A stretch of 64,000 nucleotides of DNA from Minisyncoccota bacterium (GTDB taxonomy: Bacteria; Patescibacteriota; Minisyncoccia; Phycocordibacterales; GWA1-40-21): assembly GCA_041663045.1 (NCBI GenBank), contig JBAZRH010000002.1:193946-257945 (forward strand). Direction: 5' to 3'. The notes below the pieces were generated by a model. That model had not been told where the DNA came from, did no database searches, and was given only the letters and a program-made list of their open reading frames with translations. The stretch's first letter is position 1. Every line of letters starts with the position of its first letter. Of the stretch, positions 22,229-57,865 are shown piece after piece. The translations under genes and the position numbers were made by a program.

Positions 22229-22231
22229 TTG

Positions 22232-22297
22232 TCGGGGCGCAGGGATTTGAACCCTGACTATCCGCCTCAGGCGGAGATATTACCTATAATCACACCG
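22232..22297 (-). pseudogene. degenerate tRNA-like copy; its 3' 30 nt are identical to the tRNA-Pro 3' part
   Basis: 66 nt. T-arm and acceptor 3' strand (TAGTCAGGGTTCAAATCCCTGCGCCCCGA) are identical to tRNA-Pro. The 5' acceptor strand CGGTGTG still pairs, but the anticodon arm is a 6-bp stem with a 3-nt loop (TCCGCC-TGA-GGCGGA). Confidence 0.55.
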
Positions 22298-22318
22298 ATA
22301 CCTTTTCTATCTTTATGG

Positions 22319-22389: not shown

Positions 22390-22592
22390 ATATTAAAAGA
22401 TATTAGCATAAAAGTTGTAACGAAGCGAGGGATAAAAATTTTTGTTAGGGGTGGCGAGCCTGCCCCTTTTGAAATGCCTTGGGAGCGCGACGGCGCGAGC
22501 ACGAGGAATTTTTTAGCAAGAAAATATCCGTGCATTTCAAAAGGGGCAGGTCGACAGGACCCCGTGAAAATTTTTATCCAGACAAGCCTCTC

Positions 22593-24131
22593 TCACTGTA
22601 CCCAATGCTTCCCTCTTATCTTTTTCACCTCCTTTTCATTTTCTATTTCCTTTTTTTCTTTCCCTTCCTCGCCGATTTTCTTCAATTCTTTTATTGGCAA
22701 CTTCATAAGTTCTTTCGCACGATTTTCCAAATATTCTTCAGTATTGAGTTTTGGATCTTCAAGTACATCTTCGAGAAGTGCATGCAAAACAAAGCCAACT
22801 TTTGGCCCCGGAGCTTCTTTTGTGACTTCCATAAGTCTTCCCCCATCTATTTTCAGCATTCCCACAGAAATCGGGTCTCTAGTCGCCTCTTCTATCATGG
22901 CATGATATTTTCTTAAGCGATACGGATCGGCTTTTGGTCTGCCCATACCTATCCTATCGGCGATTCGCACATTCATCAAATCCCAAATATTATCTTTGCC
23001 TACTTGAGCGATAATCCTTCTCACAGCCGACAAACTTATCTGCTCAGTATCAGAGAAAAACATATGCCATCTGACAAGCTTAACCACTTTTTCAATAACT
23101 TTTTTCGGATATTTTAAATCGGTGAGAATTTTTTCTGTCATTCTCGCGCCGATCACTTCATGCCCATAGAAAGTCCATTTTTCCTTGCCCGCCTCTTTGG
23201 AGGGGCCCTCGGCCCCTGCCCTGCGAGATTTAGGCTTGCCGATATCGTGAAGCAATGCAGATAATCTTATATCCAAAGGCCACTTTTTATCCGCCGTCTC
23301 CTGAAGCGCCCTCAAAGAATGTTCCCAAACATCATAAATATGGGCACCCTTTTGTTCTATGCTGATAGTCTTTTCCAAATCAGGAATAATATATTTCAAA
23401 ATTCCAAATTTTTGGCAGGATTTTATGCCTTCCATTGGCGTATCCGACATTATTATTTTTGTAAATTCATCGCGTATTCTTTCTTTAGAGATTTTTGCAA
23501 GAAGCCCCGATTCTACAAGCAAAGCTTTCTCCGTGGCTTTATCAATTTCAAAACCGACAAAATTTGCAATCCTTACTGCACGCAAAATCCTCAAACCATC
23601 TTCTTGAAATCTTTCATGTGGGTCGCCGACAGTCCTCAAGACTTTTTTCTTCAAATCATCTTGCCCGCCATAATAGTCCTCAATATTTCCTTTATAAAAT
23701 CCTTCCTTACTCCCCTCTTCTGTGATATTCAATGCAATTGCATTTATGGTGAAATCTCTTCTGTGAAGATCATCGTCTAGCTTTTCACTAAAAATAACTG
23801 CATCGGGTCTCCTATTATCTGAATATTCTGCTTCAAGTCTGTATGGAGTGACTTCTATCACCTTCACTGCTTCGTCTACGGTATTTTCATTTACAACACC
23901 AACAGTACCAAAAGTATTTTCATAAAAAGTCTTTGGAAAAGTGGCAATAATCTGTTCCGGCTTTGCATTTGTCGTAATGTCCCAATCTTTTGGAATAATG
24001 CCGAGCAAAATATCTCTCACACATCCGCCTATGAGATACGCCTCAAAACCCGCCTTTTTCAAAGTCTGCGACGCCTCCCAAACCTCCTTTGGTATCGGCC
24101 CGAATTCTGTTTTATTTGAAGTTTTCTTCAT
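22593..24131 (-). CDS. cca: CCA-adding tRNA nucleotidyltransferase with C-terminal HD domain
   Basis: LIGGCVRDILLG...DWDITT head domain and HD motif HDIGKP, plus a K/E-rich tail. The likely start is MKKTSNK; the track start at 24221 adds an improbable 30-aa extension. Confidence 0.85.
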   Translation of the reverse strand: MKKTSNKTEFGPIPKEVWEASQTLKKAGFEAYLIGGCVRDILLGIIPKDWDITTNAKPEQIIATFPKTFYENTFGTVGVVNENTVDEAVKVIEVTPYRLEAEYSDNRRPDAVIFSEKLDDDLHRRDFTINAIALNITEEGSKEGFYKGNIEDYYGGQDDLKKKVLRTVGDPHERFQEDGLRILRAVRIANFVGFEIDKATEKALLVESGLLAKISKERIRDEFTKIIMSDTPMEGIKSCQKFGILKYIIPDLEKTISIEQKGAHIYDVWEHSLRALQETADKKWPLDIRLSALLHDIGKPKSRRAGAEGPSKEAGKEKWTFYGHEVIGARMTEKILTDLKYPKKVIEKVVKLVRWHMFFSDTEQISLSAVRRIIAQVGKDNIWDLMNVRIADRIGMGRPKADPYRLRKYHAMIEEATRDPISVGMLKIDGGRLMEVTKEAPGPKVGFVLHALLEDVLEDPKLNTEEYLENRAKELMKLPIKELKKIGEEGKEKKEIENEKEVKKIRGKHWVQ

Positions 24132-24523
24132 TAGATGAATTTTAGCAGATATTTTGATAAAAAGAAAAGCGCACTTCCCGGAGGTCATGCGCGATTGGAG
24201 AATGAAACACATCAGAGGCACTTCAGTGTGTTAGGAAGTGAAGGATTGCAATCCCCACAATAAACAGAAACACAATCGAAAATGCTTTGACGTTGTCTCG
24301 GTTGGTCAGGAAGAGATATATTCTCGACTTAAAGAACTCTTCTTCTGCGTGATGCTGTTCGTTCTGTACGTGCGTAAACGGAGGTGTCGGAGGCATTTTG
24401 TCCAGTCCTTTCTTAATGTGCTTTTTTCACAGTGTGATTACTGTAAAAATCATCAACTTTGATAACTAATTAATAATATCAGCCTTTAGACAATATGTCA
24501 AACTAACTCATATTTTTATTTTG

Positions 24524-24595
24524 TGCGCTCGGCAGGACTCGAACCCGCAACAACAGTTCCGAAGACTGTTGTGATATCCATTTCACCACGAGCGC
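24524..24595 (-). tRNA. tRNA-Arg (anticodon UCG)
   Basis: Acceptor GCGCTCG/CGAGCGC, D-stem GTGA/TCAC, anticodon stem ACAGT/ACTGT with loop CTTCGGA, T-arm GCGGGTTCGAGTCCTGC. Confidence 0.85.
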
Positions 24596-24756
24596 AATAT
24601 TAAACTCCCCCATTAGGATTCGGTCACGACTTTTGCTCGGCCGTCGCCATCGCAAAGTCTCGACCCCGACTCGCTTCCAATCCTGCTGGCTTAGGGCCCG
24701 CTCCGTCCTTTAAATCTTTCGCAAGTAAAGACTTTTACTTGCTTTCTAAGATTTAA
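24596..24756 (-). repeat. GC-rich tRNA-associated structured element (family member)
   Basis: In tRNA orientation it contains GGAAGCGAGTCGGGGTCGAGAC, a stem-loop CTTTTGC-GATGGCGACGGCCGAG-CAAAAG, and ends GTGACCGAATCCTAATGGGGGAG; G+C far above flanks. Confidence 0.6.
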
Positions 24757-24809
24757 ACCCACAACAACAGTTCCGAAGACTGTTGTGATATCCATTTCAC
24801 CATGGGAGC
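24757..24809 (-). pseudogene. partial tRNA copy: D-arm and anticodon arm identical to tRNA-Arg(UCG), with a different 5' acceptor strand and no T-arm
   Basis: 41 nt identical to the tRNA-Arg body; acceptor 5' strand GCTCCCA. The element's terminal AATGGGGGAG could pair with it. Confidence 0.55.
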
Positions 24810-24896
24810 ATTTCATCATAATACGCTAAATTGGCTAAAAATCAAAAAACAATTTTGTTTTTTTATAAAATTGTGTATAATACAAAAAGTAAATTT

Positions 24897-24967
24897 GCGG
24901 GCGTAGTTTAATGGTAGAACTAGTCCTTGCCAAGGATTGGGTTCGGGTCCGATTCCCGACGCCCGCA
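24897..24967 (+). tRNA. tRNA-Gly (anticodon GCC)
   Basis: Acceptor GCGGGCG/CGCCCGC, anticodon stem AGTCC/GGATT with loop TTGCCAA, T-arm TCGGGTCCGATTCCCGA; TATAAT at 24876-24881 upstream. Confidence 0.85.
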
Positions 24968-25017
24968 CACATAGCAAAAAAGCGCGTAACTGCGCTTTTT
25001 TGCTATGTGTGCGGGCG
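24960..25017 (+). terminator. 26-bp perfect inverted repeat incorporating the tRNA-Gly acceptor 3' strand
   Basis: CGCCCGCACACATAGCAAAAAAGCGC-GTAACT-GCGCTTTTTTGCTATGTGTGCGGGCG. Confidence 0.6.
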
Positions 25018-25548
25018 CAATGATTTTTATAACATTCACACTAAATCCTTTCACATGAAACACGACTTTCTCTCAAAGACACACCTCCCTACTTCAAAGA
25101 CACATAATGACATGAAAAGCAGATATGAAAATAAGTGGATAATTTATAGCTTTTAATATAAGGGTATTTTCACATGAAACTGTGGATAACTATGTGAATA
25201 TGTGTATAAAAGACGACCAATAGAATCTGGCAAATTCGAGCCTTTTAGATGTCTTTTATTAAAAATACGGCTAACTGTGAGGGTAGGACATAAAATACAT
25301 TGTCTGAAATACAATCTGTCCTATATCAAAAACGTTTCTTAGAAACGTTTTAATTTGTCTCGTGTGAAAAGATTAGAATGTGTTAAAGAGACCAAAAACA
25401 CACAAAAATCAATAAAAAATTCAAAAATCTATAATAAACAAGTAAAAATACGTGAAAATCTTGAGTAATTATAAGAATATAATGATTTTTACACGAAATG
25501 AATGTTTTTTTGTGATATTTTGATTAATTATGATATAATTTACTCATA

Positions 25549-26004
25549 TTGAAAGACAAGACAAAAAACAATGAAATAGGGAAATTAGGTGAGGATTTGG
25601 CGTGTAGGTTTCTGGTGAAACACGGTTTTAAGATAATTGATCGAAATTATTGGAAAAAATGGGGGGAAATTGACATAATTTCCCAAAAAGTCAATAAATT
25701 GCATTTTGTAGAGGTAAAAAGTGTTTCCCGTGAAAGTTTACATGGTGTTTCATGTGAAAAGGGTGGCTTTAGACCTAAATCAAATGAATTTGATCGGTCG
25801 AACACCCAATCTGATGGGTGTTTTAGACCGGAAGACAATATGCATCCCTGGAAGCTACAAAGACTATCTAGGACAATTCAAACCTATTTGCTGGAGAAAG
25901 ATGTTTCAGATGAAACAGAGTGGCAATTTAATGTAATTACTGTCTATATTGATATGAAAAGGCGAGTATCAAGGGTTTTTCTGCTGGAAGATGTGATACT
26001 TTAG
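25549..26004 (+). CDS. YraN-family (UPF0102) endonuclease-like protein with an internal insertion
   Basis: GKLGEDLACRFLVKHGFKIIDRNYW..GEIDIIS....LHFVEVKS core; TTG start; TATAAT at 25534-25539. Confidence 0.6.
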   Translation: MKDKTKNNEIGKLGEDLACRFLVKHGFKIIDRNYWKKWGEIDIISQKVNKLHFVEVKSVSRESLHGVSCEKGGFRPKSNEFDRSNTQSDGCFRPEDNMHPWKLQRLSRTIQTYLLEKDVSDETEWQFNVITVYIDMKRRVSRVFLLEDVIL

Positions 26005-32335: not shown

Positions 32336-33304
32336 TTATGATTTATTATGGAATTTTTTGTGAACATCCCGCAAGTGTTTATCCGTAACATGTGTGTAAA
32401 TTTGCGTCGTCGCGATATTTGAGTGGCCGAGCATAGCCTGGACAGAGCGAAGGTCGGCACCGTTTGAAAGCAAGTCCGTGGCAAAGCAATGGCGTATGAC
32501 ATGAGGCGTGACTTTCTTTGTTATTCCAGCTATTGTGGCGTATCTTTTTACAATTCTTTCAATTGTCCTACTAGTAAGACCACCATCCGGATCAGCTGCT
32601 GGTTTGCCTTTTATCTTTTCTTCAGCGACTTTTACAAATAAAGCATCAGACATGTCCTTGCGTAGAGCGAGATATTCTTTAATAGCGGATTTGGCTCCGT
32701 CTGATAAGAATACTACGCGTACTTTACCTCCTTTTCCGCGAATAGAAAATTCGTCCATCTTTATATCCAGATCATTTTTTAGTGAGCACAATTCAGAAAC
32801 ACGAAGGCCGGTGGAAAATAATAATTCTAAAATCGCATGTCCCCTTGCTTTTTTCTCCGGATTTTCTTCCTTATCTGGTGCGGTGAGTAAACGTTTTAAT
32901 TCAGTTTGAGAGATTACGTCTATTGATCTTTCGCCGACTTTAGCCAACTCAATATTATCTGCTGACAAGGAAGTGATACCGCGTCTAGTTAGGAATCTTA
33001 AGAATATGCGCAAAGCAATCAGATAATAATTCTGCGTTTTCTTGGTCATATTATCACTGACAAAAGTCTGATTGGAATTTCTTAGTGTCCCTCGAGTTTT
33101 TGCTCCAGGTCGGCGATTCAACCAAATACGAAATTCACGCACTTTTTCATTAGTAATATCTTTCGGATTTGTAACCTTACTTTGTTTGAAGAAGAGCGTT
33201 AGGTAACGATCATAGTTTTTTATAGTCTTCAACGCCCGTCCTCTTTCGATCTCAATATATTCAAGGAATTGAGTTTTTAGTTCTTGTAAATTCATGTCGC
33301 ACAA
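32336..33304 (-). CDS. tyrosine site-specific recombinase, XerC/XerD-like
   Basis: N-terminal SAM-like domain; catalytic-region R..HxxR..Y signatures RHCFATDLL, LGHSNIATTQIYTHV. Confidence 0.8.
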   Translation of the reverse strand: MCDMNLQELKTQFLEYIEIERGRALKTIKNYDRYLTLFFKQSKVTNPKDITNEKVREFRIWLNRRPGAKTRGTLRNSNQTFVSDNMTKKTQNYYLIALRIFLRFLTRRGITSLSADNIELAKVGERSIDVISQTELKRLLTAPDKEENPEKKARGHAILELLFSTGLRVSELCSLKNDLDIKMDEFSIRGKGGKVRVVFLSDGAKSAIKEYLALRKDMSDALFVKVAEEKIKGKPAADPDGGLTSRTIERIVKRYATIAGITKKVTPHVIRHCFATDLLSNGADLRSVQAMLGHSNIATTQIYTHVTDKHLRDVHKKFHNKS

Positions 33305-50476: not shown

Positions 50477-50563
50477 GGAAGAGTGGCTGAGTGGTTTAAA
50501 GCACCGGTCTTGAAAACCGGAGGGCTCGCAAGGGTCCCGTGAGTTCGAATCTCACCTCTTCCG
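50477..50563 (+). tRNA. tRNA-Ser (anticodon UGA), long variable arm
   Basis: Acceptor GGAAGAG/CTCTTCC, anticodon stem CCGGT/ACCGG with loop CTTGAAA, variable arm GGGCTCGCAAGGGTCCC, T-arm GTGAGTTCGAATCTCAC. Confidence 0.85.
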
Positions 50564-50584
50564 CATTAACAAAAAATGCCGATA

Positions 50585-50777
50585 ATAAATATCGGTATTT
50601 TTTGTTAACTATGCGAAAGCTTGCCGAGATTCGAACGGCGGAGCACACGGAGCGAAGCGGAGTCTGTCGCGAGCACGCGACAGGCACGAGCCGGTGCCCA
50701 ACCCGAATCCGAGCGACGGCGAGGATGAGAGGTGCGGGCGAATCTCACCTCTTCCGCATTAACAAAAAATGCCGATA
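50585..50777 (+). repeat. GC-rich tRNA-trailing element ending in an exact 38-nt copy of the tRNA-Ser 3' end plus terminator
   Basis: Direct repeat GAATCTCACCTCTTCCGCATTAACAAAAAATGCCGATA at 50547..50584 and 50740..50777. Interior contains antisense GAGATTCGAAC, hairpins CTGTCGCG-AGCA-CGCGACAG and GGCAC-GAGCCG-GTGCC, and ATCC-GAGCGACGGCGAG-GGAT. Confidence 0.65.
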
Positions 50778-50802
50778 TTTATTATCGGTGTTTTTTGTTT
50801 TG

Positions 50803-51036
50803 TTAAATATTCTGAGTTTGTTTTTTCTCTTTTATATAAAGATATGCGAGATATACTATCTCTGCGATACCTATTGTGTTTAGAAAAGCCAAAATGATAA
50901 AAATCACGAGATGATCATTTTTGGATGCCTTCCACAAAGCGATAAGTTTCCAAATGATGGACCAAATTATTATTAAGACTATCCACGGGTGCGCTGTAAA
51001 ATATGCCGACAGCGCTGCGTTTAATTGTGTATCCAT
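50803..51036 (-). CDS. small hypothetical membrane protein
   Basis: 77 aa, two TM helices. Confidence 0.4.
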   Translation of the reverse strand: MDTQLNAALSAYFTAHPWIVLIIIWSIIWKLIALWKASKNDHLVIFIILAFLNTIGIAEIVYLAYLYIKEKKQTQNI

Positions 51037-51083: not shown

Positions 51084-51836
51084 ATGAAATATTTAGGAAT
51101 TGATTATGGAGAGAAAAGGGTAGGGATAGCCATATCTGACAATGATGGAAAGGTAGCCTTTCCCAAGATTGTCTTTGAGAATAACACTGACCTTTTTAAA
51201 AGAATATCTGAATTTTGTATAGAAAACAAAGTGGAGGCTATCGTCGTGGGAGAATCGAAAAATTACAAAGGTGAAGAAAACAAAATAAATCCCAAGATAA
51301 TTTCTTTCAAGAGAGAACTATCTGGTCTTATTAAACTACCAATTTCACTTGAACCAGAATTTATGTCTTCGATGCAGGTAGAGAAAACTTTTGGTAAGAC
51401 AGAAATGCTCGATGCTTCTGCCGCTTCGATAATTTTGCAGACATTCTTAGATAAAGAAAAAAATAGACAGGAGAAAAAAAAGCAAGCCGAGGCGACAATT
51501 GCCGACAAAAAAATAACTTATGACGATTTCAAAAAAGTCGAGATGAAAATAGGGAAAATACTTTCTGTCGAGCCGGTTGCCGGTTCTGATAAGCTTTTGA
51601 AACTCTCTGTCGATTTCGCAGAAGGCACACCAAGGCAGATTCTTTCTGGGATCGCCAAGTATTTTTCTGATTATCAGACACTTGTCGGAAAGAAAGTCGC
51701 TTTCGTCACCAACCTTGAGTCTAGGGAAATGATGGGACTTCAGAGTAACGGTATGATTCTTGCTGCACATACTGGTGATAGTCTCGCTATCATGGAAGTT
51801 CCGGATTTTATAAAAGAGGGGACAGAACTAAGTTAA
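51084..51836 (+). CDS. ruvX: fusion of RuvX/YqgF-like pre-16S rRNA nuclease with a C-terminal tRNA-binding (Myf/Trbp111/CsaA-like) domain
   Basis: N-terminal MKYLGIDYGEKRVGIAISD; C-terminal KVEMKIGKILSVEPVAGSDKLLKLSVDFAEG...ILSGIAK...GMILAA. Confidence 0.7.
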   Translation: MKYLGIDYGEKRVGIAISDNDGKVAFPKIVFENNTDLFKRISEFCIENKVEAIVVGESKNYKGEENKINPKIISFKRELSGLIKLPISLEPEFMSSMQVEKTFGKTEMLDASAASIILQTFLDKEKNRQEKKKQAEATIADKKITYDDFKKVEMKIGKILSVEPVAGSDKLLKLSVDFAEGTPRQILSGIAKYFSDYQTLVGKKVAFVTNLESREMMGLQSNGMILAAHTGDSLAIMEVPDFIKEGTELS

Positions 51837-55180: not shown

Positions 55181-55480
55181 CAAAATGAAAAAGGTGGAAA
55201 TCAATCCGCCTTTTTCATTTTGTGTCGCCAAGCAAGCAAACTGCTTTGCTTGCGGGTAGGAATCGAACAGCGGAACTATGTTTTTTCAGCAGAAAAAACT
55301 AGTGAGCTGGTGCCCAGACTTTTTCGAGCGACGGCGAGAAAAAAGTCGAGGGAGATAAGCGAAGTGGTCCTGCTGGAATCGAAGCCCCATTGAGCGTTTT
55401 TTGTAATTTCTGAATGAACAAAAAATCCAATGGGGGGGGTACTGACCCTGTAAGGGTCGATATCCTGCTGGCGGCTTTTT
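55181..55480 (+). repeat. composite GC-rich tRNA-trailing element(s) with two degenerate copies of the tRNA-Arg 3' end
   Basis: Terminator at 55180..55224; antisense GTAGGAATCGAAC (55256..55268); hairpin GACTTTTTC-GAGCGACGGCGAG-AAAAAAGTC (55317..55347); 3'-end-like GGAATCGAAGCCCC and GGGTCGATATCCTGCTGGCGGC-TTTTT (55454..55480). Confidence 0.6.
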
Positions 55481-55589: not shown

Positions 55590-55742
55590 CAGGCAAAAAG
55601 AGGGCAAATGCGAAAACTTGAAGTATTTGTTCTCTTTTTGGCTAATGATACAGGATTCGAAAGACGGAACACGACGGTGTGAGTCGGGGTCGCAGGATTT
55701 TCTAGCAGGAAAATACCTGTGACCGAGTCCTGTATCGCCCAC
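55590..55742 (+). repeat. GC-rich tRNA-trailing element ending in a 19-nt exact copy of the tRNA-Val 3' end
   Basis: Antisense GATACAGGATTCG (55647..55659); GGTGTGAGTCGGGGTCGCAGG; junction CTGTGACCGAGTCCTGTATCGCCCAC (55717..55742) then TTTTTT-ATG of rluA. Confidence 0.65.
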
Positions 55743-55748
55743 TTTTTT

Positions 55749-56492
55749 ATGAAAAAATCCCCAGAAATAGAAATACTATATGAAGATAAAGACGCATTGG
55801 TTATAAACAAACCTGCTGGGCTTATTGTGCATCCCGACGGGCATACAGAAGAACCGACCCTCGTGGACTGGATTTTGAAGAAGTATCCGAGAATGAAAAA
55901 AGTTGGCGAACCACTTGTACTTTCGGATGGCACGGAAATCTTCCGCCCAGGGATTGTCCATAGAATAGACCGCGATACTTCTGGTGCACTTATTATTGCC
56001 AAGAATCAGAAAGCCTACGAATTCTTGAAAGGTCAATTTAAAGCGAGAAAGGTTCATAAAATCTATCATGCATTTATTTATGGGAATTTAAAAGAAGACA
56101 GAGGAATGATAGACCGCCCGATAGGTAGAAGTCCGAACGATTTCAGAAAATGGTCTGCACAGAGAGGGGCAAGAGGTGAACTTCGTCCGGCAACCACATA
56201 TTTTAGAGTGCTCGCAAGAAAAGACGGCATTACTTTCATTGAAGCAATACCAAAAACCGGTAGAACGCATCAAATCCGCACACATTTTAAAGCTATAAAC
56301 TATCCTGTGGTGCAAGATCATCTTTATGCCACCAGGAATCTTTTGGATCAAAAGAATCAAGCAGGATTCAAAAGGCTCGCCCTTCATGCCAAAGAGCTTG
56401 AGATTAAGATTTCACCGGAGAAGACTATAAATATTAAAGCCCCGTACCCGAGAGATTTCGATAAAGCAGTGAAAGAAATAAATAAAGTTTAG
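55749..56492 (+). CDS. rluA: RluA-family pseudouridine synthase
   Basis: [16 protein letters not shown] catalytic motif. Start taken at ATG 55749; the track's GTG start at 55719 translates the tRNA-3'-end copy (MTESCIAHFF). Confidence 0.8.
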
Positions 56493-57162: not shown

Positions 57163-57311
57163 CAAAATAAGCAAATTTATTTGCTTATGTAATTGGGGAC
57201 GAGAAAACCGGAGCGATGCCGAGCCAGCAGGCGAGGCCGTGAGGCGGGGTCGAGAGTTTTTGTGAGCGACGGCGAACAAAAAACTTGTGACCGAGTCCTC
57301 TCCCGTGCACA
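57163..57311 (+). repeat. GC-rich tRNA-trailing element ending in a 20-nt exact copy of the tRNA-Leu 3' end
   Basis: Terminator-like hairpin at 57165..57188; CCGTGAGGCGGGGTCGAGAG; hairpin AGTTTTTGT-GAGCGACGGCGA-ACAAAAACT (57255..57284); junction TTGTGACCGAGTCCTCTCCCGTGCACA then ATT-ATG of the pduO-type gene. Confidence 0.65.
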
Positions 57312-57313
57312 TT

Positions 57314-57865
57314 ATGTTATTCACTAGAAAAGGCGACGATGGTAAAACCACAATATTTGGCTGTGATCAGAGGCTTTCAAAGAGTTCTGATATTGCTGAA
57401 GCACTTGGAACACTTGATGAGGCGAATTCTTTCCTTGGAATCTGTAAGGCGAAGATGAGAGAATCGAAAACCAAGATTCTTAATTTAAAGATTGAAGAAA
57501 TTCTACATGCCATCCAAGAAAACTTATTTATAATACAAGCACAAGTCGCTGGTGGTGACAAAAGAATCGATAAAGAAAAAATTTCTGAAATGGAAAGTCT
57601 GATAGGAGGGATAGAAAGCGAATTGCCACCCATAAAATCATTTATGATTTCTGGCAGTACCGAAATATCCGCACTTTTCGATTTCGCTCGCACACTTTGC
57701 CGACGTGCTGAAAGGAGAGTGGTAGCAGTAAGTGAAGAAAACCTTGCGAAGATAGATGAAGAAACCCTCGCATATCTCAACCGCCTCTCAAGCTTAATCT
57801 ATGCTCTGGCTAGATATTTCTCCAAAGAAGCCGGTATAAAGGAAGAATCTCCAGAATATAAATAA
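57314..57865 (+). CDS. PduO-type ATP:cob(I)alamin adenosyltransferase family protein (MMAB-like)
   Basis: FTRKGDDGKTT N-terminal motif. Start taken at ATG 57314; the track GTG start at 57287 translates the tRNA-Leu 3'-end copy. Confidence 0.7.
   Translation: MLFTRKGDDGKTTIFGCDQRLSKSSDIAEALGTLDEANSFLGICKAKMRESKTKILNLKIEEILHAIQENLFIIQAQVAGGDKRIDKEKISEMESLIGGIESELPPIKSFMISGSTEISALFDFARTLCRRAERRVVAVSEENLAKIDEETLAYLNRLSSLIYALARYFSKEAGIKEESPEYK

Follow-up and report, generated by a model that had tools for sequence, protein, structure and literature searches.

The window analysed here is a stretch of 64,000 nucleotides from a Minisyncoccota bacterium, in which an intact tRNA-Ser(tga) gene is followed by a terminator-like hairpin and a compact structured element (Table 1). 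A repeat search recovered the exact 38-nt repeat of the tRNA 3′ end that the preliminary description had reported, running from G57 to N73 and on into 21 nt of trailer; in the ARAGORN coordinates, it takes in the final 18 nt of the tRNA call and 20 nt beyond. The interior between the repeats was said to be GC-rich, and its G+C content (66% in 50609–50739) is well above that of the window (37.9%). The interior contains no ORF. It opens with an antisense arm, whose final segment (GAGATTCGAAC, 50626–50636) is the exact antisense of tRNA-Ser positions 53–63 (T loop and T stem), also as described before. The core reads in the order junction GAAC, P2, junction GUG, P3, and closing GGGC. The antisense arm and the downstream repeat pair in a helix (P1) that closes the three-way junction, and the earlier suggestion that the ends could form a tRNA acceptor/T minihelix agrees with the acceptor/T-stem-like helix that these two arms build.

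The duplication at tRNA-Ser extends beyond the 38-mer. The segments 50539–50606 and 50732–50799 match over 68 nt with 90% identity, and a short match between 50600–50612 and 50798–50810 takes the duplication to the start of the antisense arm, giving approximately 74 nt in total with an end at about 50810. The whole terminator-like hairpin is therein included; the two hairpins have identical left arms and inverted 5-nt loops (ATAAA and TTTAT). This long repeat is particular to the window copy, as the orthologous element in a metagenome contig (L149) has a repeat of only ~17 nt without a second terminator. The duplicated terminator, the pairing between the arms, and the same architecture at four other tRNA genes of the window had escaped the preliminary description.

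Table 1. Features of the tRNA-Ser(tga) locus, family members, and related genes in the window. Scores in bits for elements are from the covariance model R1.
Feature	Position	Strand	Evidence or remarks
tRNA-Ser(tga), intact	50477–50564 (ARAGORN); end 50564/50563 with Rfam	+	ARAGORN; Rfam tRNA model, 64.7 bits
Repeat copy S1 (tRNA-Ser positions 57–73 plus CA)	3′ end of the tRNA	+	
Direct repeat, copy 1 (exact 38 nt, tRNA G57–N73 plus trailer)	50547–50584	+	
Terminator-like hairpin hp1 (A-tract, stem, T-tract)	50568–50606	+	directly 3′ of tRNA-Ser
5′ arm (A), imperfect antisense of the tRNA-Ser 3′ end	50610–50636	+	ends in GAGATTCGAAC
Conserved core of the tRNA-Ser element	50633–50739	+	82.2 bits, E = 1.5e-20; covariation
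P2	50636–50693	+	GGA/GA internal loop, GCGAAGC insert, hairpin loop AGCA
P3	50697–50738	+	tip GAGCGACGGCGAG at 50711–50723
Direct repeat, copy 2 (S2), 3′ arm of P1	50740–50777	+	identical to tRNA positions 57–73 plus trailer
Second terminator hairpin hp1′, after S2	50761–50799	+	loop inverted relative to hp1
RuvX/YqgF–tRNA-binding fusion gene	51084–51836	+	PF03652 + PF01588
Element behind tRNA-Arg(tct)	55182–55480	+	core 55262–55356; 88.8 bits
Element behind tRNA-Val(tac)	55591–55742	+	3′ arm 55724–55742; 25.6 bits
RluA-like ORF, start codon	55749		interval from the 3′ arm 55743–55751
Element behind tRNA-Leu(gag)	57164–57311	+	3′ arm 57292–57311; 64.9 bits
PduO-like ORF, start codon	57314		interval from the 3′ arm 57312–57316
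Degenerate tRNA-Arg(tcg) copy	24810–24739	−	called by ARAGORN, not by Rfam
Element between the two tRNA-Arg(tcg) copies	24596–24738	−	36.8 bits
Functional tRNA-Arg(tcg)	24595–24523	−	
Xer-like recombinase ORF	32339–33304		

The same module was found at five of the 11 tRNA genes in the window. In it, a terminator hairpin is followed by a 5′ arm antisense to tRNA positions 57–73, a three-way-junction core, and a 3′ arm equal to positions 57–73 plus CA. The antisense segment of each module is specific to the T loop and T stem of its own tRNA and always ends in TCGAAC. The loop GAGCGACGGCGAG, previously proposed as a family signature, occurs six times in the window with up to two mismatches (0.24 expected), and five of these have a tRNA gene no more than about 180 nt away. 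Element copies within one genome are divergent rather than recent. At tRNA-Val and tRNA-Leu, the 3′ arm is followed after 7 nt and 2–3 nt by the ATG of an RluA-like and a PduO-like ORF, respectively. These starts leave no space for a ribosome-binding site, and in relatives without the element the ATG stands directly after tRNA-Leu, which suggests leaderless mRNAs freed by tRNA-type processing.

Further small structures were observed around tRNA genes in the window. The degenerate tRNA-Arg(tcg) copy, directly upstream of a family element, is identical to the functional gene at positions 8–48 and differs from it in the T arm and the acceptor 3′ strand. A second, unlike small element (GATAAGCGAAGYGGTCC ... 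ACTGACC ... TAAGGGTCGATATCC) is nested in or after the 3′ arm at tRNA-Arg(tct) (about 55350–55480, + strand), and the same type was seen in the relatives L121 (14220–14400) and L123 (14260–14360 and 16630–16690); at some other loci, a mini-hairpin of 12–15 nt is inserted after the GA of the downstream arm. The terminator of tRNA-Gly(gcc) (24960–25016, + strand) is a 27-bp palindrome, the outer 10 bp of which are the acceptor 3′ strand and its antisense (CGCCCGCACA ... TGTGCGGGCG), i.e., an antisense arm without a core. An exact 30-nt copy of tRNA-Pro positions 43–72 lies 55 nt downstream of tRNA-Pro (22231–22315, − strand); preceded by stem remnants and without a GC-rich core, it resembles a decayed tandem tRNA copy. 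A free-standing element (22425–22580, + strand, opposite to the neighbouring tRNAs) carries both hairpin modules of the family (GA-stem-GACG-stem-GA and a UAGCAAG loop) within a very long closing helix of non-tRNA origin, with a fold z-score of −7.4; it is not detected by R1. The GC skew changes sign in the region 24000–26000, where DnaA-box-like sequences (TGTGGATAA at 25181–25189 and AGTGGATAA at 25134–25142) lie in an AT-rich gap. This region is probably the replication origin, and the tRNA genes on both of its sides all point away from it.

Scanning species-representative genomes with the pattern GGTGCCCA-N6-14-GAGCGACGGCGAG retrieved at least 120 loci. The earlier view of an ORF-less element belonging to a multi-copy family is borne out. 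Among the matches listed, 81 of 127 have a same-strand tRNA ending 50–240 nt upstream; these tRNAs cover nearly all amino-acid identities (about or over 20), and most of the titled loci belong to Patescibacteria, including Saccharibacteria, Paceibacterota/Parcubacteria, Kaiser-, Taylor-, and Vogelbacteria, Minisyncoccia, and Peribacteria. The window itself comes from a Candidatus Paceibacterota MAG. None of the high-GC matches in other phyla is recognised by the covariance model, and the real loci are all Patescibacteria-like. Conservation of the core extends over phylum-level groups and to many different tRNAs. In most tRNA-linked loci, an exact antisense copy of 10–16 nt stands about 50 nt ahead of the core, and the sense copy starts at the T-loop CGA/GA and stops 0–2 nt past the tRNA end. 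The elements measure about 110–190 nt, and the direct repeats at the other loci 12–48 nt. A terminator-like hairpin separates the tRNA from the element in nearly every locus, no promoter for the element was found, and many elements precede unrelated or opposite-strand genes. Searching the element against Rfam 15, only the tRNA passed the gathering score, and nothing credible was obtained over the core at E ≤ 10. A full-text literature search found no description of such elements, and this family of tRNA-flanking folded elements in Patescibacteria is apparently undescribed.

The family also varies in arrangement, and its arrays, dispersed copies, and nested insertions are signs of turnover at the DNA level. 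Tandem arrays ending in a shortened last unit were observed at L053, L091, and L066, and effectively in the window too. One dispersed copy (L073) lies 1 kb from a tRNA-Gln gene and retains the whole arm-core-arm unit including the 3′ arm matching tRNA-Gln. At least four to five core types share one frame. Two loci of the same MAG (nzgw437; L059 and L074) have cores behind tRNA-Ile and tRNA-Tyr that are identical save one base, and their arms differ from each other and are partly decayed, which suggests gene conversion between cores inside one genome. In a search for a cargo-bearing or autonomous version, copies displaced by kilobases (L030 and L092) showed nothing diagnostic. At L052 (5510–7640), 1.9 kb separate tRNA-His from a downstream element that has tRNA-His arms and a further core type and that stands behind the terminator of an intervening Cys-rich ORF of 569 aa without a Pfam match.

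The fold was derived from an alignment of 47 elements, the tRNA-Ser copy among them, and is a three-way junction. P1, in which the antisense arm pairs with the sense arm, is followed by the junction AA. P2 has the base CGCC/GGCG or CAGC/GCUG, a GGA/GA internal loop, a variable stem, and the loop YAGCAR. After the invariant junction GUG, P3 consists of CCC/GGG, a bulged A, GAC/GUC, a variable stem, and the tip GA-GC-GACG-GC-GA. The core thus takes the pattern GAAC-P2-GUG-P3-GGGM, best written as GAAC...GGG(C/A). RNAalifold predicted 31 pairs from this alignment, with compensatory changes in 22. In the extended structure, 90.8% of the cells are paired, compared with 73.3% in column shuffles and 36–44% with slid partners; 23 pairs were changed on both sides, and the cells so changed numbered 285 versus 83 in shuffles. 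The covariation score was 0.478 versus 0.159, and the observed value was reached by none of 500 shuffles. Covariation thus supports the fold. G.U is common and A.C rare (10 versus 2 at one pair), which points to the tRNA-sense strand as the folded one. The wobble pairs and tandem G.A motifs fit a folded single DNA strand equally well.

The arms differ at every tRNA, and the conserved part is the core. In topology, arm, core, and arm correspond to a tRNA in which the core substitutes for the T loop, and the tRNA-specific arms run outwards from position 57 on both sides because G53–C56 is invariant in tRNAs. In many members, a conserved side hairpin splits the antisense arm exactly at the acceptor/T-stem boundary, and where the arm is split, a single long and nearly perfect hairpin is built from the tRNA 3′ half, the terminator, and the antisense arm. 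N73-C-A is the ending of the tRNA genes and of the downstream arms alike. The full CCA is present on the downstream arm in 13 of 58 loci, 11 of which have a tRNA gene without CCA. In the loci L001–L120, the 3′ end encoded by most tRNA genes is N73-C-A with any base next to it, and is neither CCA nor random. In 29 loci, the antisense arm is a better fit to the real tRNA than to the downstream copy, and the opposite holds in 6; the closer match could mean that pairing with the tRNA itself is relevant, or merely that S2 has decayed.

The comparison with an empty tRNA-Ser site in relatives, which the preliminary description had proposed, was made with L121, L123, and L125. They share the gene order around the window, and their RuvX-fusion protein, a RuvX/YqgF nuclease domain joined to a tRNA-binding domain, is 78–83% identical to that of the window. 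This fusion is conserved in hundreds of relatives. Filled and empty sites were both observed. The Ser(tga) site, compared in the window and L121, is filled in the window and empty in L121, where the tRNA is followed by no more than a plain terminator. The Arg(tct) site is filled in the window, L121, and L123 (the last with a different core variant) and empty in L125. Val(tac) is filled in the window and empty in all three relatives, Leu(gag) is filled in the window and L123 and empty in L121 and L125, and His(gtg) is filled in L123 and empty in the window, L121, and L125. The hairpin after tRNA-Arg(tct) in the filled L121 site resembles the native terminator of the empty L125 site, and that after tRNA-His in L123 likewise resembles the L125 terminator. 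Past the downstream arm, the L123 sequence (AGCGTTAGTTTT) matches the sequence directly after the empty tRNA-His of L121. A metagenome scan with the tRNA-Ser 38-mer yielded three contigs carrying an identical tRNA-Ser (L134, L148, and L149), and no strain-level polymorphism at tRNA-Ser was caught among them. In L149 the element is orthologous to the window copy, and its terminator, P2, and P3 show compensatory changes; L148 has the same frame of terminator and split antisense arm with a different core; and the L134 contig ends shortly after the tRNA.

The reading to which we assign a probability of roughly 0.55 is that the segment 50565–50777 belongs to a large family, specific to Patescibacteria, of small structured insertion elements that lie directly behind tRNA genes, and that its folded sense strand, probably as RNA, mimics the acceptor/T-stem of the neighbouring tRNA. 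A unit of antisense arm, core, and sense arm would be inserted immediately 3′ of the tRNA terminator hairpin. Through the direct repeat S, it could be lost, or moved between genomes sharing the tRNA, by recombination, and at tRNA-Ser the terminator would have been duplicated together with S, which would explain the unusual length of the repeat there. The terminator and flank data fit two scenarios. The unit may have been inserted after the terminator, with later loss between the two S copies taking the terminator along, or it may have been gained by homologous recombination in which the tRNA serves as left arm and S as right arm; the latter predicts a second terminator after S2, as in the window. 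The active form would be an RNA made by read-through from the tRNA gene, with tRNA-acceptor-like ends probably trimmed by tRNA-processing enzymes. Putative transcription would need such read-through, since a terminator-like hairpin stands ahead of the element and no promoter was found. These two points, the matching of the arms to more than 20 different tRNAs, which no mechanism accounts for, and the closer match of the antisense arm to the real tRNA than to S2 are the main weaknesses of the reading as a small structured insertion element. That no partner protein was identified also counts against it.

Site-specific integration into the tRNA gene, as set out in the preliminary description, would have a tiny non-autonomous circle with a tRNA 3′ end recombine at the T loop by a tyrosine recombinase acting in trans, with the upstream repeat borne by the element and the downstream repeat being the displaced native end. 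The direct repeats do begin in the T loop, a known crossover location of tRNA-targeting integrases, empty sites exist, a native-looking flank follows S2 in L123, and a degenerate tRNA-Arg lies upstream of an element. The presence or absence of the insertion between relatives upholds that part of the claim, but an integrase footprint leaves the antisense arm and the covarying core unaccounted for, and a single family would have to use attachment sites in over 20 tRNA species. Behind the intact tRNA stands a terminator of native appearance, its hairpin being locus-specific and, in L121, similar to the native terminator of the empty L125 site, and copies away from tRNAs retain the whole unit (L073). 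The Xer-like recombinase named as a candidate is real and encoded in the window, but nothing ties it to the element; it is the sole recombinase of the window and lies 17 kb away, no integrase gene is inside or adjoining the element, and no copy of the family has a linked integrase. We regard the classic integrase footprint as unlikely. A plain local duplication, in which a tandem copy of the tRNA-Ser 3′ end has decayed and folds by chance, would explain why the repeat takes in the trailer and terminator. The preliminary description had kept it as a refuting possibility, and it is extremely improbable in view of a core that covaries across phylum-level groups behind many tRNAs and a tRNA-Ser copy that scores 82 bits.

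The element may instead be an attachment site formed by folded single-stranded DNA, in the manner of CTX-type phages that integrate through Xer recombinases. A hairpin on the lagging-strand template or on incoming single-stranded DNA would mimic the duplex end of a tRNA gene, be inserted by single-strand exchange or annealing beside the extruded terminator hairpin, and use the core for DNA functions such as folding, priming, or protein binding. Integrated CTX-type elements have the order target copy, rest, inverted arm, about 90-nt spacer, and second target copy, and the order here (S1, rest, antisense arm, about 90-nt spacer, S2) is the same. Tandem arrays, the location of all elements on the lagging-strand template (GC-skew switch at ~25 kb), the lack of a promoter, the position always after a terminator, and several unrelated cores in one frame also fit, as do GCGAAGC-type mini-hairpins and tandem G.A pairs, which have a very high stability in DNA. 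On the other side, no genes for replication or packaging are present, the side hairpin breaks the duplex mimic exactly at the tRNA branch point, the 3′ arm has the ending of a tRNA and an enrichment of CCA, the copies within a genome are not recent, and the switching of arms between tRNAs is still unexplained; we judge this improbable. A cis-acting RNA switch appears still less probable. The antisense arm would pair either with the upstream tRNA 3′ half or with the downstream decoy, and the core would be a sensor that selects one of these pairings and so controls tRNA maturation or the processing or translation of a gene starting right after S2. The two pairings are mutually exclusive, the stems of S1, hairpin, and antisense arm are long and near-perfect, the antisense arm tracks the tRNA closely, and ORFs begin 2–7 nt past S2 at tRNA-Val and tRNA-Leu. 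A P1-closed junction also resembles riboswitch aptamers. Yet the tRNA folds ahead of the synthesis of the antisense arm, several cores would mean several sensors, the genes that follow are in many cases unrelated or on the opposite strand, and no ligand or regulated gene class is apparent.

Returning to the reading as a small insertion element whose folded strand mimics the tRNA end, a more far-reaching version is speculative, though not implausible: Patescibacteria may hold a parallel set of anticodon-less tRNA mimics, each modelled on the acceptor/T-stem of one tRNA and bearing a three-way-junction domain, which would spread between genomes by homology to the tRNA gene on one side and to their own 3′ arm on the other. 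The conserved domain could be a new ribozyme or a protein-binding module. If true, such self-folding, homology-guided elements would represent a new kind of genetic element, with an RNA function dedicated to tRNA metabolism or to defence. The retention of many ~150-nt copies in tiny genomes, with a core conserved across phylum-level groups, points to a real function or a highly successful selfish strategy. The family offers a handle on tRNA processing in Patescibacteria, on the spread of repeats in reduced genomes, and possibly on a new RNA class (tRNA mimic, ribozyme, or sensor). The elements also produce tRNA-end repeats and pseudo-tRNA-like signals that will confuse the annotation of integration sites and tRNA genes.

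Several identities were considered for the element and rejected. A group I intron in the T loop, or one with a spare 3′ exon, disagrees with the intact tRNA, with a core of about 100 nt versus a ribozyme of more than 200 nt, and with the lack of an Rfam intron match; the tRNA introns described in Patescibacteria lie in the anticodon loop at position 35/36 (PMC13011429). Joining the 5′ part of the degenerate tRNA-Arg by hand to the downstream arm, as a spare exon would require, gives poor stems. The junction sizes and sequences misfit the hammerhead by eye, and no Rfam ribozyme, hammerhead or other, matched. In a TnpB-type guide RNA (a scaffold with a 20-nt 3′ guide), the guide would be masked by the antisense arm, and an unsystematic look at neighbouring ORFs revealed no transposon-type nuclease gene adjoining the copies. 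A retroviral-type primer-binding site or the copying of a mature tRNA was rejected, as most arms have no CCA/TGG and the window repeat runs into the genomic trailer. TIGR arrays have short repeats unrelated to the element. A kissing interaction of the side-hairpin loop (ACUGCU) with the P2 loop (AGCAG) fits, by eye, few loci and not others.

We found no described counterpart to a conserved core whose closing helix is taken from the adjacent tRNA, in one inverted and one direct copy, and the likenesses to known systems are partial. MITEs and REP/BIME repeats are likewise small, ORF-less, multi-copy, strongly folding, and intergenic, often just after genes, but their terminal inverted repeats are conserved, whereas here the termini vary with the local tRNA and the interior is conserved; a short target duplication of fixed length, a MITE trait, was not seen around the elements. 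Islands and prophages integrated at tRNA genes by tyrosine integrases (attL/attR) share the intact tRNA, the insert, the direct repeat from the T loop, and the empty sites. Unlike them, the element is about 150 nt long without integrase or cargo, has an extra inverted copy of the tRNA segment, belongs to a family spanning nearly all tRNA identities rather than one or a few attachment sites, and conserves a covarying folded core where islands conserve protein-binding arm sites. Integron attC sites resemble it in their sequence-variable imperfect inverted repeats, folded single strands, structured tip, and AAC at the inner end of the 5′ arm. An attC identity was rejected because the outer boxes R″ (RYYYAAC) and R′ (GTTRRRY) were not matched; the 3′ arm starts at G57 without a GTT box, there is no cassette ORF or integron integrase, and the arms are derived from tRNA. 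From CTX-type Xer elements it differs in its target, a tRNA gene end rather than dif, in arms that vary per locus, in having no phage genes, and in a single-stranded DNA form that is hypothetical here; it shares with them the order of parts, paired inverted and direct arms, tandem arrays, and dependence on functions in trans. Among tRNA-like RNAs (the tRNA-like domain of tmRNA, YrlA, plant mitochondrial t-elements, and dicistronic tRNA–snoRNA precursors), no Rfam model matched the element, the T loop of which is paired and replaced by the three-way junction and the helix of which copies the sequence of the adjacent tRNA. With those RNAs, the element partly shares an acceptor/T-stem-like helix, which ends in N73-CA and in 13 of 58 loci in the full CCA, and it adjoins tRNAs, with which such RNAs are found or co-transcribed, and by analogy its processing by RNase P or RNase Z would be plausible.
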